Positions 26,193-43,723 of a stretch of DNA of 64,000 nt are shown in pieces. The notes under the pieces are model-generated. The model searched no databases. It was not told where the DNA came from and was given only the letters and a program-made list of their open reading frames with translations. Source of the stretch: Nitrosomonas sp. GTDB taxonomy: Bacteria > Pseudomonadota > Gammaproteobacteria > Burkholderiales > Nitrosomonadaceae. A program made the translations under genes and the position numbers. Positions within the stretch are counted from its first letter, which is position 1; each line of letters begins with the position of its first letter. The stretch lies in assembly GCA_024281995.1 (NCBI GenBank), contig JAMWZW010000008.1, positions 29,806-93,805 of the forward strand, given 5' to 3'.

Positions 26193-26840
26193 TTACTTAC
26201 TCTCCATCGTACTAATAAACGCATTCGCTTCGTTGATCGATTTTTCCATCGATGCAATTAGCGCCGAGACGTCGGATTTAATATTGCTTAATTCGCCTTT
26301 CAGCGAGGCGATGGCGCGGGCGTTGAGGTTGTGTTTGAGGAACATGACTTGGTCGTGGAACACGGTGAGGATGGGTTCGATCTTGGCTTCGGCTTGTTTC
26401 ATCGAGGCAATCAACTGGCGGTAGTGCGCTTGCGTGCTGTCGAGTTTTTTCTGGCTGCTTTGTTTCATCGATGCATTGCTGTATTGCGTAATTTCCTGCT
26501 TCCACTCGTTAAACAATGCTTCGGATACGCTTTCAATGTCGGCAATACGGCTTCTGACTTCTTCGGCTTTGCCGATGCTTGCTTCGTAGGCGTCATTCAG
26601 ACGGTTATACGTATCTTCCAGATCGCCGCCGCTGAAATGGGTGGCGGCGGTGAATTGTTCCAGCGCGGATTTAAATTGTTCCTTGGTTTCCTCCTGCGTG
26701 TCGCGCGCTTTTTCGACGCGGTATACCATCACGTCGCGCTTCGGAATGCCGACTTTTTCCAGACCCTCAAGGTACATTGTGGAGCAAGCGGTAAGCATCA
26801 GCGCTAGTGAAATAACGAATAAACGAATAATAGGGCTCAT
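26193..26840 (-). CDS. DUF2959-like coiled-coil lipoprotein
   Basis: ATG at 26840 with GGAG RBS gives MSPIIRLFVISLALMLTAC (lipobox); LFLKHNLNA-like motif (MFLKHNLNARAIASL). The longer start in the ORF track is probably spurious. Confidence 0.75.
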   Translation of the reverse strand: MSPIIRLFVISLALMLTACSTMYLEGLEKVGIPKRDVMVYRVEKARDTQEETKEQFKSALEQFTAATHFSGGDLEDTYNRLNDAYEASIGKAEEVRSRIADIESVSEALFNEWKQEITQYSNASMKQSSQKKLDSTQAHYRQLIASMKQAEAKIEPILTVFHDQVMFLKHNLNARAIASLKGELSNIKSDVSALIASMEKSINEANAFISTMESK

Positions 26841-26892
26841 AAGTGTATCTCCGTTGAAAGTTCTGTAAATAGTCGCGGGTTTAAGCGATTTG

Positions 26893-28887
26893 TCAGCGTA
26901 ATACGCCGCGCTGTAGCAATTGCCACGCAACTTTCAAACCCCACAGGATAGGGTGGCGGCGCAGCATCGGGGTGATTTCGACGTGAACGCCGGTATGCCG
27001 TTCAATTTTCCATGCGGCGTATTCGACGCTATTTCTGAAAGTCAGTGTGGCCTTGGCCAGTCTCAGGATCGATAACATTCGCCCTTGCCAGCGGCGCAAA
27101 CGCCAGTGCCATAGCGCTTGCTTTTGCATTTCTGGTGTAGTCAGGCAACGATATTTACCATTGTTTTGTTTTTCCAGGATTTCTTCCAACATGGGGCTGG
27201 CGACATCTGTGAGGCGGGTAAAAGCGCTGAGATTGGTTTGCGCCAGATGGCGAGCGCGTGTTTCCCGCTCCGCACGTAATTCAGCAGAATAAGTGAGCGT
27301 TAGGCAGCGCGTCCAGATTTCTTCGACATCGGCTATTCCGGCTTCAAGCGTGGGGACGCCTGATTTCAGAAAGTTAATGACGGAATGGGCCTGTGCTACG
27401 TATAAGCGTTCCCGCACAGTCTCATCACGAACATACAGCAACCGTGATGGTTGGGCAAAGCGTGCCCAAATATAGGGATGAAACCAGTATTGCGCGCCCC
27501 GTTCAAAATCTTCTGTTGAAATGACAGCGTATTTGGCGCGTAACATGCGCTCTTGATGCGGTACCTCGAGGTAAAAAACATTGGGTGCCAGCCAGGCGTT
27601 TAAATTAGCCAAATAATTCTGGGGATACGCTTTATAGTAGCTATTGACGATGACGTACAGATCGACGATACCTTCTTCCAGGCTGACTCCGGAATGCAGG
27701 CAGGAACCATAGAGCATCACGGCATCCAGTGATTCACCGAAACGCATAATAAGCGAATCGACCAAAGGTACGAGATCAGGTGATGTTTCCTTGTTGTTTT
27801 CCCAAGCAACTTCACTGATCAATCGAACAGGTAGTTGTTTGGCGGGTGCGGATATGGAGTAATTCATGGTAATAATGTTGTCCTTTAGTGCTAAAAATGT
27901 AATGGGATTGGTTGCAGTAATTCGTAAGGGATTGTATGAATTGACCGATCGATACAATTCACCATCGACAATGTATTCATCATCCATGTGTAAAGTCACT
28001 GCATGGGTGTTATGGCTAAAGTAGCCGTCTTTTTCTTGTAATACTTCACCGCCGCCGGAAAGTAGTGGCCATAATGAGCGCCACAAGCGTTTGTGCTGTT
28101 GATTAACCCAAGTCACATGCAGCGGTTCGGGTTCTTTGCCCCAATACGGCCGGATGTTGAGTAACAAGCGGTCCAATGCGCTGACTAGCGCAAATAGATA
28201 AGTGCCCTGGTGTGACTCTCCGTTGGCTTGCGTTATCTTCATGGTAACAGGCGCCCATTCATCATCTTGGCGGCCAAAGATCTTGCCGGTAATCATGCCG
28301 GCAAGCGAGCGCAGCATAATGAGAAAGGTAAAAATTCCACCGGTAATTCCAATTTGCTTTACCGGGCTACGCGAGAATTTGACGCCACGCGCGATCAGGC
28401 CGACAGCAAAGAACATGCCATAGATTGGCGCCATGCCGCGTTGTTCGATCCGCAATGCCGGTCGTTGCACCAGATTTGGCGCCGATGGCTGCAATAAATA
28501 ATCACGTAAGCACGCTAAGATCCGCTCAGGTTTGCCGCACATGCCTAAATCCAAGGGCGTCATATTGGTGGTGCCGCCAGGAATAATTACCAGCACCGGC
28601 CATTTTTCAGGTGCCAACAGAGTAAACAGATGGCCAAGTATTGCGTGCGTTGTGCCATCTCCAGCGACAATGACCAGTAAGTCGATGTCTGCGCGCAGCA
28701 GTTGCACGATTGCCGTTTTAAAAGAAGTGGCGTCACTGGCTTCGCAAACAAGCATAGAGGGCATTGCTTCTAATATTCGATGGATAGCCGCTTGACGCTT
28801 GCGTACTTGACCACTCATAGGGTTTAGCAGGCAGCCCACTTTAGCTGTCCTGGTTTTCAGGCGGTCAATCCGTGCGTGTAAAGTCAT
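26893..28887 (-). CDS. diacylglycerol/sphingosine-kinase-family domain fused to a nucleotidyltransferase-fold domain (CpgB-like + CpgA-like)
   Basis: N-half LNPMSG...AGDGTTHA (DAGK catalytic); C-half MLYGSCL...DLYVIV (Pol-beta NTase-like); internal Met341 at 27867. Confidence 0.75.
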   Translation of the reverse strand: MTLHARIDRLKTRTAKVGCLLNPMSGQVRKRQAAIHRILEAMPSMLVCEASDATSFKTAIVQLLRADIDLLVIVAGDGTTHAILGHLFTLLAPEKWPVLVIIPGGTTNMTPLDLGMCGKPERILACLRDYLLQPSAPNLVQRPALRIEQRGMAPIYGMFFAVGLIARGVKFSRSPVKQIGITGGIFTFLIMLRSLAGMITGKIFGRQDDEWAPVTMKITQANGESHQGTYLFALVSALDRLLLNIRPYWGKEPEPLHVTWVNQQHKRLWRSLWPLLSGGGEVLQEKDGYFSHNTHAVTLHMDDEYIVDGELYRSVNSYNPLRITATNPITFLALKDNIITMNYSISAPAKQLPVRLISEVAWENNKETSPDLVPLVDSLIMRFGESLDAVMLYGSCLHSGVSLEEGIVDLYVIVNSYYKAYPQNYLANLNAWLAPNVFYLEVPHQERMLRAKYAVISTEDFERGAQYWFHPYIWARFAQPSRLLYVRDETVRERLYVAQAHSVINFLKSGVPTLEAGIADVEEIWTRCLTLTYSAELRAERETRARHLAQTNLSAFTRLTDVASPMLEEILEKQNNGKYRCLTTPEMQKQALWHWRLRRWQGRMLSILRLAKATLTFRNSVEYAAWKIERHTGVHVEITPMLRRHPILWGLKVAWQLLQRGVLR

Positions 28888-28904
28888 GAGCTAGAAATAG
28901 TGAA

Positions 28905-30143
28905 TTAGTTGGATGAAAAAGGGTAAGGTTTTCTGAGATTGAGTGGTGCGCGCGTAAAGATTTTGACCGCCCATATTTCCCGGTCGCGTGCCGGATCGAT
29001 ATCCTGCAGCCACGATTTCAGTGCACCTTCTCTTTGCTTGACTTGCCAGCCCGTAACTACGCGCCATGTAAGGAAGCCGGTTGAGAGTAAATGCCAGAGA
29101 ACCACCAGAATTAAGCCGGTGTCCGGGTGACCGGCCGCCCAACCATATGTAAGCAGTAGAAGATTAGGATTACGTCGTGCCGTGATTAAACGATTGAAGG
29201 AATCCAGTTTGCGCCAAATGAATAGGTCAAAAGGTGCCAGCCAAAGCTGGAATGCGCCTTCGCATAAGCGTCCGCCGATATAGCCAATGAACATAAGCCC
29301 CATCAGTATTTCCAATCCGGCAATAGCAGAGTCGCTACCTGCCAAGCCGGCACCCCAGGCGAGATACCAAAGCGGCGGATGGATAATATCCAAGCCATGA
29401 TCCATGACATCTCCAACACGGCTTGAAGTTACGGTGACACGCGCCAATTTGCCATCAACAGTATCGAGGAAAGTCATAAACCATCCCATCAGCAGGCCAA
29501 TGCCAAAAAATCCGGCCCAGAATGCCAAGCCGGTCAGAATAGCCAGCACAATACTGAGGTAGGTCACATGATTCGGCTGCCAGCCTCGATGCACGCAATA
29601 ATGTGTAGCCCAGAATGCAGGCACCGGCCAAACCCATTTGGTGACAAGATCGGTTACGCCTTTATACGAACCGGAAAACAGCTCCTTTTCCAGGAGCGGG
29701 CGGTTATTCTCGCTGATGGGTAAAATGTAAGGCGGATCCTTCTTTTTCAGGTTTTGCTGGAAATCGATTTTCAGATCTATTAACCCAATGCGTGGGATAG
29801 TGAGTAACACGAATTTATAATTCTGGTTTTTGTTGCTGTTAAGGTTTCTGAGGACTCGCGGTGCTTGATTGCCATCGGTGCGGATGGCGGCAGGGCAATT
29901 TTCTTCACTGTATAAGGCTATTTTTTTATCCAGACTCAATAATGCGGCCAGTACCCGCGTATCGAACAGAAAATTGGCATTCAGAAATAGTGCACTGGCG
30001 CCGGTAGGAATTTTTTCGACATGTTCAACCAGCTGGATGTGTTCATAGGCGTTAAGCATACGCTGTAGACGCTCACGACCGGTCAATCCCCAAATTTTGA
30101 TTTCACTTTCACCGAAAATATAAATATATGTTGAAGTGGACAT
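28905..30143 (-). CDS. CDP-alcohol phosphatidyltransferase family protein (CpgC-like)
   Basis: FLDTVDGKLARVT...GDVMDHGLD matches the D-x2-DG-x2-AR-x7/8-G-x3-D-x3-D signature; extended N-terminal domain. Confidence 0.88.
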   Translation of the reverse strand: MSTSTYIYIFGESEIKIWGLTGRERLQRMLNAYEHIQLVEHVEKIPTGASALFLNANFLFDTRVLAALLSLDKKIALYSEENCPAAIRTDGNQAPRVLRNLNSNKNQNYKFVLLTIPRIGLIDLKIDFQQNLKKKDPPYILPISENNRPLLEKELFSGSYKGVTDLVTKWVWPVPAFWATHYCVHRGWQPNHVTYLSIVLAILTGLAFWAGFFGIGLLMGWFMTFLDTVDGKLARVTVTSSRVGDVMDHGLDIIHPPLWYLAWGAGLAGSDSAIAGLEILMGLMFIGYIGGRLCEGAFQLWLAPFDLFIWRKLDSFNRLITARRNPNLLLLTYGWAAGHPDTGLILVVLWHLLSTGFLTWRVVTGWQVKQREGALKSWLQDIDPARDREIWAVKIFTRAPLNLRKPYPFSSN

Positions 30144-30229
30144 GTGATGTGGTTGTGATAATTATTCCATATGATCACAGCAGCGATCTTTTGACGGGAT
30201 GCTCGTAATTCATAAATTTAGTCAGAAAA

Positions 30230-31597
30230 TTAACCTATTTGTATCTCTGCATTAGCGTATTTAATATGCTTTTTCTTTGGAGTAGCCAGAAAATAGGCAA
30301 AAGTCAGTGGCCCTACGCGACCGACTATCATTAAAAATATAATGACAATCTCTCCTCCCGTACTTAACTGAGTTGTTAATCCCCTGGACAAGCCAACTGT
30401 GCTCAGTGCAGATACTACCTCGAAAACGATATCAATGAATGGAGCTTTCTCAGTTACAGTCAGGAAAAAGATTCCAATGAAGATCATGATAATAGATACA
30501 GTAGTTAATGCCAATGCTTTCATTACTTGTGATTGAGGAATAGTTCGTTGCAGTACTACGACATCATCCCGGCGGCGGAGGAAAGTATAGGTAGCCATGA
30601 TTAAAACCACGAAAGTGCCTAATTTAAGCCCGCTGGCGGTACTTAATGAACCTCCTCCGATAAACATCAATAAGATTATCAGGGTTGTTGTGGCATCGGT
30701 AAGTTCTTCTATAGCCAATGTATTGAAACCAGCCGTTCGCGGCGTAACGGCCTGAAACCAGGCAGCAATCACCTGATCTCCAAGCGATAGTGGGCCTAAT
30801 GTCGCAGGATTCTGTACTTCCAGAATCCAAATAAGTACAAAAGCACATAAATTAATGATCAATGTGCTAATCAATACAATTTTGCTGTTAACGCTCAATT
30901 TATGCCAGCTTTTTTGTGTTCTTAAGTCAATTAATACCAGAAAACCGATACCGCCGATAATAAAAAGCGTTGTGATGATAATATTAACGGGTAAATTGCT
31001 GGCAAAGGGCATCAGGCTGTTACTATTTAGGGCAAAACCAGCGTTATTAAATGCGGAAATCGTATAAAAGAATGCTTGATAGACAGCCGTGGTAAAACCC
31101 AAATCGTTTAACCATGTGGCAGTTAGTAATAAGAATCCGGCCAGTTCTATGAATAACGAATAAATTAAGACATATTTTGCCGTGTGGGCGACTTTTTCCA
31201 AGCTGGTTTGATTAAAGGCTTCCCGTGCAATCATTTGTTGCCCAATACCAAATCTGGCACCCAAACTTAATGCCGCAACAACCGCAAAGGTCATGAAGCT
31301 TAATCCACCGGTTTGAATTAATAGGGCAATAATAATTTGGCCGAACAAAGTAAAATGAGTACCCGTATCGACAACTGCCAAACCGGTAACTGTAACCGCT
31401 GAAGTTGCGGTAAAAATGGATTGTAGCCAGCTAATCTCGCTATGCGTTGCAAACGGTAGCTTTAGTAACAAAGATCCAAGTATAATCAACAAAATAAATC
31501 CCAGGAAAAGTACAGTCGGGGGATTGATATTCAATGTGGTGGTTTTTGGCAGGGTTACTCGTTTGTAAGGTAGAACACGGGGATCCCATAATTTCAT
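30230..31597 (-). CDS. ktrB: Ktr/Trk potassium uptake membrane subunit
   Basis: Four pore-loop Gly motifs: SAVTVTGL, SAFNNAGF, PRTAGFN, SALSTVGLS. Confidence 0.9.
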   Translation of the reverse strand: MKLWDPRVLPYKRVTLPKTTTLNINPPTVLFLGFILLIILGSLLLKLPFATHSEISWLQSIFTATSAVTVTGLAVVDTGTHFTLFGQIIIALLIQTGGLSFMTFAVVAALSLGARFGIGQQMIAREAFNQTSLEKVAHTAKYVLIYSLFIELAGFLLLTATWLNDLGFTTAVYQAFFYTISAFNNAGFALNSNSLMPFASNLPVNIIITTLFIIGGIGFLVLIDLRTQKSWHKLSVNSKIVLISTLIINLCAFVLIWILEVQNPATLGPLSLGDQVIAAWFQAVTPRTAGFNTLAIEELTDATTTLIILLMFIGGGSLSTASGLKLGTFVVLIMATYTFLRRRDDVVVLQRTIPQSQVMKALALTTVSIIMIFIGIFFLTVTEKAPFIDIVFEVVSALSTVGLSRGLTTQLSTGGEIVIIFLMIVGRVGPLTFAYFLATPKKKHIKYANAEIQIG

Positions 31598-31599
31598 AA

Positions 31600-32253
31600 T
31601 TACGCCAGCCTGGGAGCAATCGTTTTAAGTATGTTTAAAGTACCGGCTAATACCAGTGAGTCGCCTGATTCTAAAACAAAGTCCAATTTAACCGGTGTGA
31701 AGATATCTTTATTACGCTGCACCAAAAGCGGCTTTATCGAATGCTCCGTTTCTTTTAATAGCTCTTCGATTGCAATGCCTTGACACTTATCGGTTATCGT
31801 AATTTCAACCACATATAAATTGTAACCTATCGCCATATATTGGTTTACCATAGGGTAATTAAGCGATTGTGCTACTTTCATGCCCATTTCTTCTTCGGGA
31901 TGAATAATTCGGGAAACACCGATTCGAGAGAGAATCGTGTGGTGTGGTCGTGAAGTTGCTTTGACCCAGATTTCCTTGATATTCATGCTCTTGAGTTGCA
32001 GAACGCACAATATGCTGGCTTCCAGGCTTTCCCCGATTGCAACAAGAACAGCATCGCAGGCCGTAATATTCAGATCCTTAAGTGCGTGTTCATCCGTTGC
32101 ATCTGCTATTGCTGCAAGGGTTAATTGATCTGCCATTTGATTTATAATTTTCGGGTTAATATCCACCCCGATTACCGAGTGACCGAGACGCATCAATTCT
32201 AATGATGCTGCAGATCCAAACCGGCCTAGGCCTATTACTGCAAATTGCCCCAT
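31600..32253 (-). CDS. ktrA: Ktr/Trk potassium uptake RCK regulatory subunit
   Basis: VIGLGRFG Rossmann motif, DATDE, IIHPEEEMG. Confidence 0.9.
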   Translation of the reverse strand: MGQFAVIGLGRFGSAASLELMRLGHSVIGVDINPKIINQMADQLTLAAIADATDEHALKDLNITACDAVLVAIGESLEASILCVLQLKSMNIKEIWVKATSRPHHTILSRIGVSRIIHPEEEMGMKVAQSLNYPMVNQYMAIGYNLYVVEITITDKCQGIAIEELLKETEHSIKPLLVQRNKDIFTPVKLDFVLESGDSLVLAGTLNILKTIAPRLA

Positions 32254-32312
32254 TTCATTTCCGCCTTCGTTTTAAAAGATGATTGTTGCAAAGCTGCACT
32301 GGCAAGTCTCAA

Positions 32313-33374
32313 TCAGAAAGTTTTGCGCAACCATAAATAGGCTAAAAGAATCATGATGAGGCCAGGTACCAGCGCGATGAGTGCAGGGTTTAAGTCTAAT
32401 ATGAGTCCGACATTGGCGATAATTTGATCGAGTAAATAAACAGCAATACCAATGAGCGCAGCAAATACTAGTTTATTGCTCAAACCGGCGCGTATTGATC
32501 CAAAGACAAATGGAATCGATAGCAGCAGCATGGCGATCGTCATGAGTGCGCTACCTGCCTTACGCCATAGCGTTAACGCATAGGATTTTGCATCCTGACC
32601 GGTACTGCGTAAGAATTCTACATGCCGTGCCAATTCGAATGGAGATAGGCTTTCAGGCGGTTTGGTCAGGGTAGCAATGTCCTCCGGATTAAGAAAAGAC
32701 TGCCACTGTAATGAGTGGTGGCGAGTTGCTGAAATGCTATCCGTGGTAAAACTTCTTGTGATGACATTACTCAATTCCCACACATTGTTATCGGTAATGT
32801 CGGCATACTGCGCCTGGGTGTGCGTATTCAAAAAACCATCTTGGTCCAGTTGCAGAATTTCAATATCGGCGGCCTTTTGAGCATGTATCATTTGACCAAT
32901 ACGTAGAATATTGTGTTCGTTGCGCGTCCAGATTCCAAGGTTTCTGCCTAATTCGGCACTAAGCCCCAGTGCAATTGCACGATTCGTGATGGCGTGTTGC
33001 TGTAATTGTGGTGCTACAAAGTGTTCGAGCGTGGTTACGAATAGCAGCAGGAGAATACCAATCGTCAAAGATACGAAACTGATGCGAGTAGGTGATAATC
33101 CCGCAACCCGCATGGCAATTAATTCTGAGTGCACAGCCAGTTTACCTAGCGCTATAACAGTTCCTAATAAGGCTACAAAAGGAGCGATTTGAATAAATCT
33201 TCGCGGTAGTAACAGGGCGGTGTATAAGAACGCATCTGTGACGTGATAAGTGCCTTTGCCGACATCATCCAGTTGATCCAGTAAATCAAAGAAGCTGAAT
33301 AAAGGAAGCAAAACCGCGGTTGCAATGGTGAAACCGATCGCTACTTGATATGCGATATAGCGGTAAATAATCAT
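32313..33374 (-). CDS. lptG: LptG-family permease (paralog in the sphingolipid cluster)
   Basis: MIIYRYIA start at 33374 overlaps the lptF stop (ATGA); SELIAMRVAGLS motif; six-TM layout. The ORF-track start at 33494 is an out-of-gene extension. Confidence 0.85.
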   Translation of the reverse strand: MIIYRYIAYQVAIGFTIATAVLLPLFSFFDLLDQLDDVGKGTYHVTDAFLYTALLLPRRFIQIAPFVALLGTVIALGKLAVHSELIAMRVAGLSPTRISFVSLTIGILLLLFVTTLEHFVAPQLQQHAITNRAIALGLSAELGRNLGIWTRNEHNILRIGQMIHAQKAADIEILQLDQDGFLNTHTQAQYADITDNNVWELSNVITRSFTTDSISATRHHSLQWQSFLNPEDIATLTKPPESLSPFELARHVEFLRSTGQDAKSYALTLWRKAGSALMTIAMLLLSIPFVFGSIRAGLSNKLVFAALIGIAVYLLDQIIANVGLILDLNPALIALVPGLIMILLAYLWLRKTF

Positions 33375-34450
33375 CGCTGGTGGGAAAATTGTTTTTGCCG
33401 TGCCAGTAATGCATAGATGACCAATCCACATATCATGATCAGCTCCAGCCACCAAACACCCGGTATCGTTCCAATGGTGCCTTGCTCCACCCAATTTTTA
33501 GCGAGCCCAGCGAGATTATAATAGGCAGCAAAAACCAGGGCCGCGATCAAATAAGTGCGGTCGGTTTTATCATGGCGCGGCGTGGTGCGGATAAACGTCA
33601 TCGCAATAAGGGCGAGCAGGATGGTGGTCAGTGGGCGTGAAATACGCCATTGTAATTCTGCGATATCCCTTAGTTGATCGGATTCCCAAAGAGTTCTTGT
33701 GGCTGCTGATTTGCGCCGGTAGTTAAGGGCGAAATCGTTATCATAAAAATACGTCATATTTTTAAACTGAATGACATCATCAATAGTGGCTGTACCGCTT
33801 AATTTATAAACTATTCCTTCGGATAGTTGGATACGCGGCCGCGGTTCTTCCGCTGTGGGTTGAATCTGGCTGGCTTGCTTGGCAATTACGATTTCGCTAC
33901 CTTCGGATTTCCTGATATATTGAAAAATATCCTCCATTTGTTTGTCGATGTCATTTTTGTTGCGGACATAGATGACTCTACCTGTTTTTTCGCTGCCGTA
34001 AAATCGCCCGACTTGGAAGCGGTTGGTATTGAGCTCGGCTTCCGCTTGTGCATCGAGAATATAGCTCTCTCCATAAGCCCAAGGACGGACATACGATGAT
34101 AGGATGCCGCTGACGATACCGACGGGTATCGCTACCGCTAATACGGCTAATACAATGCGCGTATGGCTAATGCCCATAAAGCGGATGACATTTAATTCCT
34201 GATCTTTGTTAAGTCTACCAAGGCCGATAATTACTGATATATATAGTGCAATGGGGATGAGTACTTCTAGTGCAATCAACGTTTTCAGAAACACAAGTTG
34301 GAGCAGGGCAACAATTCCCAATGTTTCAGTAACGGCGCCCGCCAGTAGGCGAGCACTGCTGAAGCTGGCGAATAAACTAACCAGGATTAGGATGACTACC
34401 GTGAATGGCAGCAATATTTCACGAGCAATATACCGTTCTACTAATTTCAT
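33371..34450 (-). CDS. lptF: LptF-family permease (paralog in the sphingolipid cluster)
   Basis: MKLVERYIAREI, GRLNKDQEL, AELQWRISRP. Confidence 0.85.
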   Translation of the reverse strand: MKLVERYIAREILLPFTVVILILVSLFASFSSARLLAGAVTETLGIVALLQLVFLKTLIALEVLIPIALYISVIIGLGRLNKDQELNVIRFMGISHTRIVLAVLAVAIPVGIVSGILSSYVRPWAYGESYILDAQAEAELNTNRFQVGRFYGSEKTGRVIYVRNKNDIDKQMEDIFQYIRKSEGSEIVIAKQASQIQPTAEEPRPRIQLSEGIVYKLSGTATIDDVIQFKNMTYFYDNDFALNYRRKSAATRTLWESDQLRDIAELQWRISRPLTTILLALIAMTFIRTTPRHDKTDRTYLIAALVFAAYYNLAGLAKNWVEQGTIGTIPGVWWLELIMICGLVIYALLARQKQFSHQR

Positions 34451-34515
34451 TGAGTTGCTAGATCAGTGCGAGACTGATGACGTTACGGTAATAGGGATTG
34501 GATAGCAGGAGAACA

Positions 34516-35361
34516 TTATTTAACAGATGAATCGTCATTGTAAAAGCCGGATGCTTTTTTATTGAGTATAGACTCAGCCAGCATCAGATCTTCAATTTTA
34601 TCAACATCCACGCCAGCTCGCGGGTCATCCAGCATAATGGCTTGTATTTTTACTCCTGATTTTTCCGAAACAGCTTGTAACGCTTGTCGCAATGTTAACA
34701 ATCTAAACAAGTAGGAAAATACCATTTTAAATCCGAGTACCTGCTTGATTAAGCGCCAAGGGTGCTTACGCAAGTCTTCAGCTTGCCGCCAGAATCTGAC
34801 CAATGCTCTTCCCTGTGAATTAAATGTAAACAAATTACAGCCGCAGAATCCACCATCACTGAGGCGGATAACCGTACGCTTGGAACCGGGAAATGCAGCA
34901 GCAATAACCTGTTGCCGGATTGCACCGACAGTGGCGTCACAGGGTGTTGCCAAAGATGTTCGCAAGAAATTTTGTACAATGCTGGGTGTAAGCAAGGCAT
35001 GATCGGCAGTGGTTAATAATACCGGTGTATCACTGGGTATTTGGCTGAGACCGTTTTCAGCGCTTCGGCTGGGTGAATCCAAATTCGGTAACCAGGTCAC
35101 CTGCCCTGAGGCAATGCGCTGTTTTAATTCGGGGCAATGTACGTGCAGCGCTTCGGGGGGACCACAGAGAATAATGGTAGAAATCAGATCACAGGCTGAT
35201 AGTGCATCCACAACGCGGATAATCATCGGTATGCCACCTACGGATGCAAAAGCTTTACAAGCAGCTCCTGTGTGTTGCGTGATAGGATCCGCGCTGGTGC
35301 GGTCAGCAGCGAGAACCAATGCAGCATATCGTTGCGGTATTTGATGGAATTCATCGTTCAC
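34516..35361 (-). CDS. MobA-like NTP transferase / nucleotidyltransferase
   Basis: ALVLAADR...KAFASVGGIPMI, LLTTADHALL, GVDVDKIEDL. Confidence 0.85.
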   Translation of the reverse strand: MNDEFHQIPQRYAALVLAADRTSADPITQHTGAACKAFASVGGIPMIIRVVDALSACDLISTIILCGPPEALHVHCPELKQRIASGQVTWLPNLDSPSRSAENGLSQIPSDTPVLLTTADHALLTPSIVQNFLRTSLATPCDATVGAIRQQVIAAAFPGSKRTVIRLSDGGFCGCNLFTFNSQGRALVRFWRQAEDLRKHPWRLIKQVLGFKMVFSYLFRLLTLRQALQAVSEKSGVKIQAIMLDDPRAGVDVDKIEDLMLAESILNKKASGFYNDDSSVK

Positions 35362-36509
35362 AGTGTTTTTCCATAGATACGATAACGTTTGTATTGCTTG
35401 CTGCCGATCCTGTCGAGGATACTGCGCATAGCAGCATTATCTTCCAGAATCCATGACATCTCGACTTCTCGAATTCCACGTTTGAGCCCCACTTGTCTTG
35501 GGGCATCGATTACCAGGCATGCGAGTGCCAAACCAATGGGCGTATTGTGAAATTGCTTGCGAACACCCATAAGTGGTATACGGCCTGTGTGTATTTGATT
35601 ATTCCTAATGCTTTGAATGAGTTTAAGCCATCCGAATGGAAATAGACTGCCGTTAAGTTTGATCAAGACTTCGTTGAGATTAGGAAGTCCGACCATAAAA
35701 GCCGCAGGCTTACCATCAACTTCGGCAATTTGAATATATTCATCAGGTAGTAGTAGTCGCAGACTACTGCCTAATTCAGCAAATTCTTCTTGTGTAAACG
35801 GGATAAATCCCCAGTTCTCAGACCAGGCATCATTGAATATATCACGCAAAATTTCCATTTCGTGATCAAACTGATTGCGTTGTAATGTGCGTAATCTGAT
35901 TTGTGAAGAGAACCGATTGATCAGCATTTGCATGACCTTAGGTATTTCAAAATCAACGTTAACTTTATAAGCCAGTAAATCTTTTGCCGGAAAATATCCT
36001 TGTTCTTCAAGCAATCGGTCATACCAGGGTGGTGAGTGCGGCATCATGACGACCGGCGGGGTATCAAAGCCTTCAACCAAAATACCGCATTCCTGATTGA
36101 TGGAAAGATTGAACGGACCAGTGATGCGGCGAATTTGCCGAGAGGCTAGCCATGCTTCTGCATGTAGCATTAACGCAGCGCATACGGCTGAATCGTTGAT
36201 GCATTCGAACAAACCAAAGTGGCCGCTATCTGTGCCATAACGTTCTTGATGCAGTGAGTCGATTTGCGCACTGATTCTTCCAATGGGTTGATCATTTCGA
36301 TAGGCAACCCAGGCCTGCCACTGGCCATGCTTAAAATAAGGATTGAAGCGGGAGAAGTGAAAGCGCCGCTCGAGACGTAAAGGCGGCACCCACATCGGAT
36401 CATTAGCATAGACATGCCAGGGTACATCAATAAATTTCCCCATATCGCGATAAGACATGACCGGACGTACCGTAACTTGGGAGGTGACCGGCTTATCGTG
36501 TTTAGTCAT
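35358..36509 (-). CDS. GNAT-fold protein of the bacterial ceramide synthase (bCerS)-like family
   Basis: DPMWVPPL, GRISAQID, GPFNLSINQECG, KDLLAY, EMSWILEDN..M, Y..YR.Y; neighbours match the Caulobacter sphingolipid locus. Confidence 0.75.
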   Translation of the reverse strand: MTKHDKPVTSQVTVRPVMSYRDMGKFIDVPWHVYANDPMWVPPLRLERRFHFSRFNPYFKHGQWQAWVAYRNDQPIGRISAQIDSLHQERYGTDSGHFGLFECINDSAVCAALMLHAEAWLASRQIRRITGPFNLSINQECGILVEGFDTPPVVMMPHSPPWYDRLLEEQGYFPAKDLLAYKVNVDFEIPKVMQMLINRFSSQIRLRTLQRNQFDHEMEILRDIFNDAWSENWGFIPFTQEEFAELGSSLRLLLPDEYIQIAEVDGKPAAFMVGLPNLNEVLIKLNGSLFPFGWLKLIQSIRNNQIHTGRIPLMGVRKQFHNTPIGLALACLVIDAPRQVGLKRGIREVEMSWILEDNAAMRSILDRIGSKQYKRYRIYGKTL

Positions 36510-40431: not shown

Positions 40432-42596
40432 GTACAACTAGTCGAAGCCGAAAAGATGAAAAAAAGAAACCGGGAATCCTTAGAGTTAATTTATTCGCTG
40501 AATTTTCAGCTACAACGAGAGACCGAGAATTAAAAGGTGCTATCACCAACGCAGCAGTTATCGTCAAAACAAACATGTTTTCGAATAATAAAATTGTTGC
40601 TCAAGATGTGACTGGACAAGATGGATGGGTAGATATTCCTCTCGAATCGGGGGGGTATCGTATAGAGTTTCCTTCACTTCCCGATCAATGGCAGCCGCAG
40701 TCAGGGCATTTAAGTGTCACGGTTGACGATGCTAAATTTAATGAAACAGGACATATTGTCGAAGCGCGTCAGAGTGGACTGGCTCTGGATATACTTACTA
40801 CGGCAGGCGACGATTTTATGCCCAAGCCCAGCTTGAATATCACGCAAGGTAAAGGAATCTGGATAGTAGTCACTGTACCGAACTATTTGCCATCTGTAAT
40901 TCCCGATACCTCGATAAACAGAGGCTTTTTACAAAAAATTCAAAAATCCGAGCACAGGGATAATGTGAGCTATAAGGCTCAAGTAACAGATGTATCGGGT
41001 AGCGGTCCATTTGGTTTTTTTAGCAGAGTATTGCTTAGCGATGATCGTGATGGCCCAGCCGTTATTATGAACGACGAAGCTGTTATTGAAGAAAGTAAGC
41101 AAATTGTTGGTGGCCAAGTCAATACTACTACCTCATTAACACGTACTGAGACCTCTTTCACTGAAGACACGGCATTCTGGACGGCGATCCGCAATAATAC
41201 GGATGCGCTTTCATTCAATAATTATCTTAGTTTTATGAATTGGATCTTTTGCAACCAGTTACCTAAGAATTTGAGCGGTTTTGAAGATAAACGCTTTGGC
41301 AAAAAAAGAGAGGCCTTTGAAAGCGATGAAATAGGTTTATTGAATAAACGCTTTTTGCCTTTTACTGATTCAGATGCCTATCGTGTGATGAAGGCTGCGA
41401 CTGAGGCATTTGTCATGGTGAACTGTGGGGTGTTGAGCGAGGAATTACAGCCGTTTGACTTGGAGTTAGATAAAGCCTATCTCGATAGGAGAGATTTGCC
41501 GTTTCCACAGAACGGATTGAGTAGTGCTTTTAACGATAATTATCTGGTGGGCGTCGATGGCAATGGTAACGTATTGCCCTATCTCGCGGTTATTCGTCGG
41601 AAGTTACCCGATATCAAGATTAAGCTAACTCCTTTCGAAGAGGCGGCTCGAAGAAGTAGATCCAATGCAGTCGATGCGGACGAATGTTTTGGGCTGCTGC
41701 AAGAGAAACTCGCCAATCCTTGCTTGCTCGAGCTCATCTGGTCGTACTGGCACGAAGAAGGCATGTTGGTGCAAACAACTAACGCCATTACACGGCGGTT
41801 CCAGAATGTGCGTTCATCTGCACGTGATCCACTGGTTAACCTGGAAATGGATCCGCTACGGCCGCTCAATAATGTGCTTTGGGGTTATATCCAGGACGAG
41901 CAACATCGCTTGACCGTCAACCGGCGTAATTACGAGTACGATCACCATTACGGTCTCCATTTGGAAGGCAAAGCGGTGCAAAATTTTCGTCCCGCCGATA
42001 CGCGTTCAAAGTTCCTGGAAGCGTTTCATCATTTATTGCGTTTATGTAGCGTATTTTATAAGCAAGACGATGATACAACAATCAAGGCTGATGCTTTTCC
42101 AGTACTCAACGCCCTCAAGGAAATACACTTGATTCTGTCCCAAGGGGCGCACAATCAATTTGGCGATTTACCATCAACGGCTCGCATCGAAATGTTGATG
42201 CAGCAATGGTTGCTGGCTCGGCCGGAGTTCCGGGAATTGTTGCCGACGCGCATTATGGTGGCTTATCCCGAACCTTGGATGGATCGCGTTGACGCGATGA
42301 AAAAATTGCAAGGCTGGACCGATACCAGCGTATTGCATTTCCGCAACTTGGGCATGTTCGGTGAGCAACTTTTGCTTTCCATCCGTTGGGGTCATTGGAG
42401 CGACGAATTCGAGCCTGTCAAAGCGCTCAATTGGGCGCGGTTTTTCCGTCCGCAGGCTCAGGGCTACATTCATGCCTACCGTGCTGCAACCGGTGTTGAT
42501 CTATCGGTTGATTTGACTGCCAATGTGCCCGTGGATTCGACCTTGCCATCGGTATTGTTGCAAAAGCGCCTGGCAAGTCAGCAACGGGCGATGTGA
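40428..42596 (+). CDS. hypothetical protein (722 aa): beta-rich N-terminus plus helical His/Glu-rich C-terminal core
   Basis: Start overlaps the upstream stop (ATGA); long ORF with no recognised named family. Confidence 0.8.
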   Translation: MSTTSRSRKDEKKKPGILRVNLFAEFSATTRDRELKGAITNAAVIVKTNMFSNNKIVAQDVTGQDGWVDIPLESGGYRIEFPSLPDQWQPQSGHLSVTVDDAKFNETGHIVEARQSGLALDILTTAGDDFMPKPSLNITQGKGIWIVVTVPNYLPSVIPDTSINRGFLQKIQKSEHRDNVSYKAQVTDVSGSGPFGFFSRVLLSDDRDGPAVIMNDEAVIEESKQIVGGQVNTTTSLTRTETSFTEDTAFWTAIRNNTDALSFNNYLSFMNWIFCNQLPKNLSGFEDKRFGKKREAFESDEIGLLNKRFLPFTDSDAYRVMKAATEAFVMVNCGVLSEELQPFDLELDKAYLDRRDLPFPQNGLSSAFNDNYLVGVDGNGNVLPYLAVIRRKLPDIKIKLTPFEEAARRSRSNAVDADECFGLLQEKLANPCLLELIWSYWHEEGMLVQTTNAITRRFQNVRSSARDPLVNLEMDPLRPLNNVLWGYIQDEQHRLTVNRRNYEYDHHYGLHLEGKAVQNFRPADTRSKFLEAFHHLLRLCSVFYKQDDDTTIKADAFPVLNALKEIHLILSQGAHNQFGDLPSTARIEMLMQQWLLARPEFRELLPTRIMVAYPEPWMDRVDAMKKLQGWTDTSVLHFRNLGMFGEQLLLSIRWGHWSDEFEPVKALNWARFFRPQAQGYIHAYRAATGVDLSVDLTANVPVDSTLPSVLLQKRLASQQRAM

Positions 42597-43723
42597 GCTG
42601 CATGGCTATGATCAATTTCACCTCGGCGCTATATCTGGGACTGCATCATCCGAGCCAGTTTTTGCAACCCTGGCAACAACTTACACTGGGGGTGCCGGCT
42701 GCGCTTGAAGAACCGCCCGGGGCTGAGGAGGCGGCGGGAGGATTGGCACAGTTACAAGGGTGCGAGCACGGTGTGTTGTTGCCTTCCACGTTGCATCTAT
42801 TCTGGGATTTATTTGCCATGCTGCGCCAACAACCGGCAGCGTTGTTTCTGGATGAAGGAGCTTATGCGATTGCTCGCTGGGGAGCAGAGCAATTTAGTGC
42901 CAAAGGGGGTGATGTTTACACTTTCCGGCACCACGATCCTGAAGCGCTGCTGGTGCAAATCAAGCGGCATGCGCATCAAAGAAAATATCCCGTGGCAATT
43001 GCCGACGGCTTTTGTCCGGCGTGCGGTCATGCCGCACCAGTCGGAGAATATCTGGAAATTGTGAGACGTTTTGGTGGTTTACTGGTGTTGGATGATACCC
43101 AAGCTTTGGGAATTCTGGGTGAGTCGCCAGCGTTGCACAGTCCTTATGGCAAAGGCGGGGGCGGTATGTTGCGCTGGAGTGGAAACTTTGGACCGGACAT
43201 CGTGGTGGGCTCATCACTGGCAAAAGGTTTCGGCGTGCCGGTGGCGGCTCTTGCGGGCAGCAAAAAACTGGTCAAACGCTTTAAAATGGCCAGTGATACC
43301 CGGGTACATGGCAGTCCGCCGTCGGCGGCTGTTATTCACGCAGCCGCTCATGCGCTGACGGTGAACGAGATCCGAGGCAGTTTGCTGCGGCACAGATTGG
43401 CTCAGCGGGTTGTTCAATTTCGCAAAGGACTGGAAGCCATCGGCTGGGATTCCATCGGCGGCTGGTTTCCCGTTCAAACCTTGCGGGGAATCGTTGGAAA
43501 CGCCGCGGTCAAAATGCACCAATACCTTTCCCGGAACGGTATTCAGACAGTATTGTCACGGCCCCGCGATAACGGCGAGGCACACCTGAGTTTTTTAATT
43601 ACAGCGCGGCATAGCGCTGATGAAATTGATCATTGCATCGACATACTGAGCACATTGACGCATAGCATCGACAAGGCTGCAAATCGCAGCGGCAAGTCAG
43701 CGTATTCGGGCTTCATAAAATGA
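42593..43723 (+). CDS. divergent PLP-dependent alpha-oxoamine synthase-like (BioF/KBL/SPT fold) protein
   Basis: INFTSALYLGL, ADGF, LDDTQALG and SSLAKGFG (Schiff-base Lys); GTGA overlap with the upstream stop. Confidence 0.8.
   Translation: MSCMAMINFTSALYLGLHHPSQFLQPWQQLTLGVPAALEEPPGAEEAAGGLAQLQGCEHGVLLPSTLHLFWDLFAMLRQQPAALFLDEGAYAIARWGAEQFSAKGGDVYTFRHHDPEALLVQIKRHAHQRKYPVAIADGFCPACGHAAPVGEYLEIVRRFGGLLVLDDTQALGILGESPALHSPYGKGGGGMLRWSGNFGPDIVVGSSLAKGFGVPVAALAGSKKLVKRFKMASDTRVHGSPPSAAVIHAAAHALTVNEIRGSLLRHRLAQRVVQFRKGLEAIGWDSIGGWFPVQTLRGIVGNAAVKMHQYLSRNGIQTVLSRPRDNGEAHLSFLITARHSADEIDHCIDILSTLTHSIDKAANRSGKSAYSGFIK

Follow-up and report, generated by a model that had tools for sequence, protein, structure and literature searches.

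Anionic sphingolipid synthesis is known in Caulobacter from a 17-gene region, CC_1152-CC_1168 (CCNA_01210-01226), that encodes the ceramide synthase CerS, the nucleotidyltransferases (NTases) CC_1152 and CC_1153, LptF2, LptG2 and LptC2, CpgA, CpgB, the cytidine diphosphate (CDP)-diacylglycerol-synthase-like CpgC, Spt, AcpR, CerR and AasR (Olea-Ozuna et al. 2024, PLoS Pathog; PMC11324152). Published experiments on these proteins assign ceramide synthesis to Spt, AcpR, AasR, CerR and CerS. Assays identified Caulobacter CpgB as a ceramide kinase and CpgD, likewise encoded in this locus, as a cytidine triphosphate (CTP):phosphoglycerate cytidylyltransferase, which forms CDP-glycerate (PMC12275187; PMC10331486; bioRxiv 10.64898/2026.04.12.717747). 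CpgA, CpgC and CC_1153 are required there for ceramide phosphoglycerate (CPG) and CPG2, and cpgA, cpgC and cpgD mutants lose only phosphosphingolipids. Caulobacter LptF2 and LptG2 associate with each other and bind to LptB, and the cell tolerates their deletion only if it produces no anionic sphingolipids (2026 preprint, bioRxiv 10.64898/2026.04.12.717747). In S. wittichii, which has no lipopolysaccharide (LPS), the F2/G2-type pair is the only one, and LptA, LptD and LptE are kept (2026 preprint). Orthologues of the Caulobacter genes have also been listed for Nitrosomonas eutropha C91 in three regions (Neut_1100-1106, Neut_0458-0461 and Neut_0267/0268), with CPG/CPG2 synthesis predicted (PMC11324152, Fig 7, S2D Table). 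Here we describe the corresponding cerS-lptFG-cpg cluster of another Nitrosomonas sp. It lies in a 64,000-nucleotide stretch of DNA (GenBank assembly GCA_024281995.1, contig JAMWZW010000008.1, positions 29,806 to 93,805), which we call the window.

We consider it likely that this cluster is the head-group and export half of an anionic sphingolipid system, and that its LptF/LptG pair, which is of the LptF2/G2 type and the sole pair in the genome, exports a lipid that probably replaces LPS. The core reading of the cluster is already published for the congener N. eutropha (PMC11324152). To it we add that the operon carries the only LptFG, of the sphingolipid type, in a family without recognizable lipid A genes. 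The cluster consists of nine tightly packed genes on the minus strand (26193-36509; positions are those of the window unless a contig or locus is named). An earlier note on this DNA had described on that strand a GNAT protein, an NTP transferase, lptF and lptG, ktrAB, a CDP-alcohol phosphotransferase, a kinase-NTase fusion and a lipoprotein; family scans and models found every one of them in its place. The note had also spoken of a betaproteobacterium, and the host indeed belongs to the oligotropha/ureae lineage of Nitrosomonas: the nearest relatives of the GNAT protein come from N. oligotropha, N. ureae and strain Is79A3 (79-88% identity). The assembly (2.88 Mb in 21 contigs) is 97.6% complete. 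The likeness to the Caulobacter locus that the note proposed holds up, in that the family content mirrors CC_1152-CC_1168 as published. The genes that it expected elsewhere, spt, acp and cerR, were found together with aasR on contig C1, outside the window (G000:C1:262202-266418).

Comparison with the described systems shows the same protein families in a different arrangement. The Caulobacter locus is contiguous, with separate cpgB and cpgC, whereas the Nitrosomonas genes are split over three regions. N. eutropha shares both the gene order of the window cluster and the division into the cluster, an aasR-cerR-acpR-spt operon and a CC_1157-cpgD region. The present genome differs from N. eutropha in that cpgB and cpgC form one 664-amino-acid open reading frame (ORF) and in that a ktrAB insertion separates lptG from cpgA. 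The order cerS-NTase-lptF-lptG-cpgA-cpgB-cpgC recurred in every Nitrosomonadaceae locus that we retrieved, which argues that the arrangement is not due to chance. Caulobacter additionally has LptC2, the CC_1166 flippase and the CC_1158 phosphoesterase, for which N. eutropha has no orthologues. For a wider view we collected the 80 closest cerS loci, 46 of which are at least 18 kb long and none of which is from Caulobacter. Orthology to named enzymes was anchored on the published N. eutropha table and on the Escherichia coli BL21(DE3) sphingolipid island (RefSeq NC_012971, 2989282-2997066). The island carries yghO, aasR, cerR, acp, spt and an lptF/lptG pair whose products are 32-53% identical to the Nitrosomonas proteins. 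E. coli differs in keeping LPS and canonical lptFG, and its island lacks cpgA, cpgB and cpgC in the stretch read.

The two export genes stand in the middle of the cluster. The product of lptF (33371-34450) scores 210 bits with the Pfam LptF_LptG model and 288 bits with TIGR04407, and that of lptG (32313-33374) scores 316.6 bits with TIGR04408; the lptG start codon overlaps the lptF stop as ATGA. In all Nitrosomonadaceae loci the pair sits between the CC_1153-like NTase gene and the cpgA side. The earlier note had taken these genes for a second Lpt-like route. This view has to be given up: a search of the genome for a canonical lptFG returned no second pair, 60 of 61 Nitrosomonadaceae genomes likewise have one pair, and no lipid A pathway is present that a first route could serve. 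Caulobacter keeps LPS and canonical LptFG, so its LptF2/G2 are true paralogues, whereas the Nitrosomonas pair is alone. The published comparison treats Neut_1102/1103 as LptF2/G2 "second versions" and is silent on both their status as the sole pair and the loss of lipid A genes (PMC11324152).

Of the 30 genomes that we sampled from other Burkholderiales families, 29 also have one LptFG pair each (the remaining one, of 0.9 Mb, gave no match). The pairs differ in kind. Nitrosomonas LptFG is only 20-30% identical to the pairs of 28 other Burkholderiales families, which form a clade of their own, and 34-51% identical to the extra pair found within the cerS clusters of genomes with two pairs (a Pseudomonas, Azorhizophilus paspali, a Salinisphaera, Desulfoprunum and gammaproteobacterial metagenome-assembled genomes [MAGs]). 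LptF is 34% identical to LptF2 of the BL21 island and 23% identical to LptF of E. coli K-12. In FastTree and IQ-TREE phylogenies, LptF and LptG of Nitrosomonadaceae nest in a clade that holds only cluster-encoded pairs, 21 in number, with 99-100% support, and the BL21 island pair falls within the same 29-row clade, again with 99-100% support. LptG groups with the cluster-type pairs at 99% in the Shimodaira-Hasegawa-like approximate likelihood ratio test (SH-aLRT). The canonical Burkholderiales pairs form a separate clade together with the canonical copies of the two-pair genomes. K-12 LptG is nearest to these canonical copies, but K-12 LptF was pulled away from them and forms a small group with two alphaproteobacterial cluster rows on long branches. 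Forcing Nitrosomonadaceae to join canonical Burkholderiales costs 133 log-likelihood units for LptG and 129 for LptF (approximately unbiased [AU] test, p-AU 1.3e-5 each). Taken together, the sequences indicate that the pair is of the sphingolipid-locus LptF2/G2 type and not orthologous to the LptFG of related LPS producers. Rather than being a paralogue beside a canonical LptFG, it matches the situation in S. wittichii and not that in Caulobacter.

RefSeq/PGAP names the BL21(DE3) island pair (L179; NC_012971, 2994920-2997066) "LPS export ABC transporter permease LptF/LptG." Because this pair bears the same curated names, the LptF and LptG models cannot tell the sphingolipid and LPS types apart. 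The label of canonical housekeeping LptFG, which scores above the TIGR04407 and TIGR04408 cut-offs would have suggested for the Nitrosomonas pair, was discarded on the strength of the trees and of the BL21 naming. As a signature of type, the E. coli residues K34, K40, K41, R133 and R136 of LptG and K30, R33 and K317 of LptF proved non-discriminating; conservation of the E. coli lysines already breaks down among the canonical Burkholderiales proteins.

The type of the pair coincides with the loss of the lipid A pathway. Translated searches (tblastn) with E. coli K-12 proteins found no LpxA, LpxB, LpxC, LpxD, WaaA, KdsC or KdsD in this genome, the sequence of which contains no masked bases. The same query set recovered the controls FabZ, PepA and HolA as well as LptB, LptA, LptD, MsbA and an LpxK-like gene. 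Matches to KdsA and KdsB were weak (26% and 34% identity) and at the level of paralogues, and we discounted them as evidence for Kdo synthesis. For N. europaea, lpxK had already been noted as the only one of the nine Kdo2-lipid A genes, a pattern that was ascribed to genome reduction (Opiyo et al. 2010). The Pfam LpxC model matched none of 61 Nitrosomonadaceae genomes, all at least 95% complete. It matched its positive controls (E. coli, Caulobacter, Synechococcus and Bacteroides), all six genomes of other Burkholderiales families and every two-pair genome tested. Outside Nitrosomonadaceae, LpxC was missed only in Taklimakanibacter albus and in a Sphingomonadales MAG. T. albus (L090 / G067), an alphaproteobacterium of the Hyphomicrobiales, has its sole LptFG pair within its cerS-cpg cluster and may be another LPS-free sphingolipid lineage. 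The transport bridge is kept in the present genome, with LptC (143.8 bits), LptA (95.6 bits), LptD (341 bits), LptE (68.5 bits) and an LptB that is 59% identical to that of E. coli.

The absence of LpxC from Nitrosomonadaceae as a whole, and of LpxA, LpxB, LpxD and WaaA from this genome in addition, makes it probable that the sphingolipid replaces LPS, as it does in Sphingomonas. The two cases are alike in the absence of LpxC, LpxB and WaaA, in the presence of spt, in a single LptFG near sphingolipid genes, and in the retention of LptA, LptD and LptE. They differ in that sphingolipids (glycosphingolipids) are chemically established in Sphingomonas, whereas those of Nitrosomonadaceae are predicted from genes, and in that the head-group genes are of the CPG type in Nitrosomonas and glycosyltransferases in Sphingomonas. 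Given that one lineage is alphaproteobacterial and the other betaproteobacterial, the loss of lipid A appears to be independent of that in Sphingomonas. We found no paper that ties the lipid A gene loss of ammonia oxidizers to the sphingolipid cluster and the type of LptFG, in a search that did not extend to subscription journals.

The cargo of such a transporter would be built on ceramide, the genes for which are divided between the window and contig C1. The first gene of the cluster, cerS (35358-36509), encodes a 383-amino-acid homolog of bacterial ceramide synthase. Its Pfam GNAT match is below threshold (E 1.4e-3), and a sequence search of solved structures with single proteins of the locus gave weak GNAT and DAGK matches and nothing stronger. 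The AlphaFold model of CerS (mean predicted local distance difference test score [pLDDT] 91.3) is a tandem GNAT, which Foldseek matched to tandem-repeat GNAT acyltransferases (E 8e-16). The GNAT protein could have fallen outside the bacterial ceramide synthase clade. Instead, it is 48.5% identical over 373 amino acids (E 9e-138) to YghO of E. coli BL21, a published CerS orthologue, and its loci are linked to spt and cpg genes: either the ceramide core genes spt, cerR, aasR and acpR or cpg genes occur in 43 of the 46 longer related loci. These loci span beta-, gamma- and alphaproteobacteria as well as Desulfobulbaceae and Thermodesulfobacteriota MAGs. In 63 of the 80 related loci, cerS lies directly upstream of a gene for a CC_1153-like NTase. 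Here this gene (34516-35361) encodes a 281-amino-acid, MobA/CofC-like protein of the NTP_transf_3 family (PF12804, 51.4 bits); it has a GTG start and overlaps the cerS stop by 4 nucleotides. In N. eutropha, Neut_1100 is 41% identical to CC_1154, and Neut_1101, listed as the CC_1153 orthologue, is 33% identical to it (PMC11324152).

The aasR-cerR-acpR-spt operon on contig C1 encodes a fatty acyl-AMP ligase, an epimerase-family reductase, an acyl carrier protein of 84 amino acids and an alpha-oxoamine synthase. We identify the synthase as Spt by its score of 567 bits on the betaproteobacterial serine palmitoyltransferase model NF047599 (cut-off 500). Relative to the BL21 island proteins, Spt is 53%, AasR 48%, CerR 44% and AcpR 41% identical. 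The spt gene is present in 60 of 61 Nitrosomonadaceae genomes, and the cut-off of the model was reached in only 1 of 78 other Burkholderiales genomes. A divergent gene of the alpha-oxoamine synthase type also lies in the window itself (42593-43723), 6 kb from the cluster and within a neighboring sigma-54 island; with 69 bits on the spt model it was rejected as a second spt. Three kilobases downstream of the spt operon are genes of hopanoid type, encoding an HpnH-like radical SAM protein with DUF3463 and a family-2 glycosyltransferase (G000:C1:269532-271822; L014 13533-15823).

The remaining pathway genes of the cluster are those for the head group. The cpgA-like gene (28905-30143) encodes a CDP-alcohol phosphotransferase of 412 amino acids (CDP-OH_P_transf, PF01066, 33.7 bits) with an NTase-like N-terminal domain that gives a weak NTP_transf_4 match. 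It is kept downstream of lptG across Nitrosomonadaceae and shows 35-50% identity with genes that sit in cerS clusters from other classes. Its N. eutropha counterpart, Neut_1104, is 41% identical to CC_1159 (PMC11324152). Next to it, the cpgB-cpgC fusion (26893-28887) encodes a protein of 664 amino acids, with a DAGK-type kinase in residues 1-335 (DAGK_cat, 46 bits) and a cytidylyltransferase domain of Tam41 type in residues 336-664. The DAGK_cat domain precedes cpgC in a conserved position, and of the 61 Nitrosomonadaceae genomes, 60 carry cpgB/cpgC. A profile of 35 homologs of the C-terminal half matched Tam41 (6IG2) with an E value of 6e-6, and Foldseek, given its predicted structure (pLDDT 87.6), placed entries for Tam41 CDP-diacylglycerol synthase (7ECD, 6IG4 and 6IG2) in each of the first five positions, with E values of about 1e-8. 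It thus shares the fold of Tam41/Mmp37 CDP-diacylglycerol synthase (6IG2, 6IG4, 7ECD), with a TM-score of 0.49-0.57 and 14-16% identity. What sets it apart is its fusion to a lipid kinase within a sphingolipid operon, by reason of which its substrate would be ceramide-1-phosphate, not phosphatidate.

The fusion has a recognizable origin. In most Nitrosomonadaceae cpgB and cpgC are separate, and their junction usually reads "...FLVL," followed by a stop codon, 4 to 6 in-frame codons and an ATG. At the corresponding place within the 664-amino-acid ORF (27870-27900; compared across L016-L041), the stop is replaced by Lys or Gly in the oligotropha/ureae lineage. One Nitrosospira locus likewise lacks the cpgB stop. 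As the stop has been lost repeatedly, in separate lineages, we read these junctions as the product of more than one fusion event. The recurrent kinase-Tam41 fusion supports consecutive action of the two enzymes. This is in keeping with CDP-ceramide as an intermediate, a possibility raised by Olea-Ozuna et al. 2024 (PMC11324152).

A third region, on contig C1 and outside the window (C1:236833-241104; L027 4834-9105), contains a NifS-like counterpart of CC_1157 and a COG1213-type NTase of 250 amino acids, the candidate CpgD (G000:C1:239129-239881). The two genes adjoin, as do Neut_0267/0268 of N. eutropha, and the candidate is 40-54% identical to genes in cerS loci. Downstream in the same operon are genes for a HIT protein, a protein of the fatty-acid desaturase/hydroxylase family and a dPGM-type phosphoglycerate mutase. 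A HIT gene accompanies cpgD in 14 of the 80 cerS loci, in other taxa. The HIT protein may be an unrecognized member of the pathway, and the mutase may be a dedicated supplier of phosphoglycerate.

The genes of this third region bear on the nature of the head group. The pathway could operate as described and yet attach a different group, such as phosphoinositol, phosphoglycerol or another phospho-acid, to give an anionic or zwitterionic lipid. In favor of this possibility, curated models match the CDP-alcohol phosphotransferase weakly at best, and the closest of them point to inositol-phosphate synthases (44 bits, where the cut-off is 180). The HIT, desaturase and mutase genes beside cpgD are foreign to the Caulobacter scheme, and CC_1158, CC_1166 and LptC2 of that scheme lack N. 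eutropha orthologues. On the other hand, CpgA and CpgD of the congener align with the Caulobacter enzymes over 93-96% of their length at 41-44% identity, and a phosphoglycerate mutase in the cpgD operon fits a phosphoglycerate donor. We regard a different head group as unlikely, although it is the most probable of the alternatives.

The same genes could instead act on glycerolipids. The fusion, the CDP-alcohol phosphotransferase and the NTases would then convert diacylglycerol via phosphatidate and CDP-diacylglycerol to an unusual phospholipid, and the linkage to cerS would reflect envelope co-regulation only. DAGK_cat and Tam41 are indeed families defined on glycerolipid substrates, and their activity here is predicted. 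However, the head-group genes accompany cerS and spt in four classes, Caulobacter CpgB was assayed as a ceramide kinase, and the loss in the Caulobacter cpgA, cpgC and cpgD mutants is confined to phosphosphingolipids. Further, three other CDP-alcohol phosphotransferases elsewhere in this genome serve ordinary phospholipids. A glycerolipid pathway is accordingly very unlikely. Least credible of all is that the sole LptFG exports an LPS-like glycolipid from an unrecognized non-Raetz route, with its position in the cluster a historical accident and the sphingolipids taking another path or staying in the inner membrane: the genome keeps an LpxK, MsbA-like transporters and an entire Lpt bridge, the pair exceeds the curated LptF and LptG cut-offs, and Bacteroidetes and myxobacteria combine sphingolipids with a single LptFG pair, but tblastn found none of the seven absent lipid A and Kdo enzymes named above, the cut-offs are passed equally by the BL21 island pair and so do not discriminate, the pair is phylogenetically of the sphingolipid-locus type, and Sphingomonas shows the same gene pattern without LPS.

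The reading that we prefer, synthesis of an anionic sphingolipid and its export by the LptFG of the operon, can be set out as a sequence of steps. By orthology, ceramide would be formed by Spt, AcpR, AasR and CerR, encoded on the other contig, together with the tandem-GNAT CerS encoded here. The DAGK-type domain of CpgB-CpgC would phosphorylate it, as expected from homology to the assayed Caulobacter CpgB. Its Tam41-type domain would then most likely activate ceramide-1-phosphate with CTP to give CDP-ceramide, as the fold and the recurrent fusion suggest. CpgA, the CC_1153-like NTase and the CpgD-like cytidylyltransferase may add phosphoglycerate-type groups, as indicated by orthology and Caulobacter genetics. 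The predicted product is an anionic phosphosphingolipid resembling Caulobacter CPG/CPG2. LptF and LptG of the operon, acting with LptB, LptC, LptA, LptD and LptE, would export this sphingolipid, which would stand in for LPS. For this organism we infer the CPG-like anionic product, CDP-ceramide, export by LptFG and replacement of LPS.

Several observations weigh against this reading. An LpxK-family kinase is kept (200 bits; G000:C11:143829-144842; L176), with no other gene of the Raetz pathway present. We found no lipid chemistry for any Nitrosomonadaceae in the searchable literature; the product and the lack of LPS alike are read from genomes. Orthology to the assayed enzymes is bridged by proteins of E. 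coli BL21 and by the orthologue table published for N. eutropha. The CpgB-type kinases of N. eutropha and Caulobacter are only about 25% identical (PMC11324152), which leaves the ceramide specificity of the kinase unassured. The phylogenies were computed with FastTree or with a brief IQ-TREE search, and the clade for the AU test was defined with the tree already in view. The trees were built without LptF2/G2 of Caulobacter and Sphingomonas, and the alphaproteobacterial cluster pairs that they do include are long-branched and poorly placed. Finally, we found no pocket residues that separate canonical from cluster-type LptFG.

A broader proposal extends to all betaproteobacterial ammonia oxidizers, and we see about as much reason to accept it as to doubt it. 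These bacteria would have an LPS-free outer membrane with an essential anionic, CPG-type sphingolipid in its outer leaflet, extracted by LptB2-F2G2 and delivered by LptC, LptA and LptD/E. This would be a second replacement of LPS, independent of that in Sphingomonas, that came about by gain of the cluster followed by loss of canonical lptFG and lpx genes, and the kinase-Tam41 fusions would mark a CDP-ceramide intermediate.

Three further genes complete the cluster. Between lptG and cpgA lie ktrA (31600-32253; TrkA-N/TrkA-C, Pfam TrkA_N 96 bits) and ktrB (30230-31597; TrkH family, TIGR00933 343 bits). This insertion was seen only here and in the metagenomic Nitrosomonas locus L030; it is missing from N. 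oligotropha Nm45 and the other loci of the family. The GC content of ktrAB is 0.405, compared with 0.45-0.50 in the flanks. We conclude that ktrAB is a recent lineage-specific insertion that is unrelated to the lipid pathway. The run ends with a DUF2959 gene (26193-26840; Pfam DUF2959 276.9 bits), the likely start of which yields a lipoprotein signal peptide ending in the lipobox LTAC. A DUF2959 gene comes after cpgC in loci L030, L032, L035, L037 and L041 and not outside Nitrosomonadaceae, and it is the last gene of the run in Nitrosomonas. The lipoprotein may work with the system in the envelope, or its gene may simply lie beside the others. An Rfam scan of the window gave no RNA family matches. 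Promoter and terminator consensus scans of the window gave nothing decisive, promoter-like sites being rarer than in shuffled sequence.

In soils, waters and treatment plants, nitrification begins with Nitrosomonadaceae, which perform its first step; one species is also used on human skin. If the outer membrane of these bacteria is indeed endotoxin-free and dependent on an anionic sphingolipid, the permeability of the envelope and its sensitivity to polymyxin and to LpxC inhibitors would be seen differently, and the lipid biomarkers and immune neutrality of ammonia oxidizers would be read differently as well. The natural kinase-Tam41 fusion is a ready reagent for examining CDP-ceramide as the missing intermediate of ceramide phosphoglycerate synthesis. 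The genetically tractable N. europaea would be a natural Lpt machine without LPS cargo. In such a host, the question raised by Caulobacter of whether sphingolipids use LptA and LptD/E would become directly testable.

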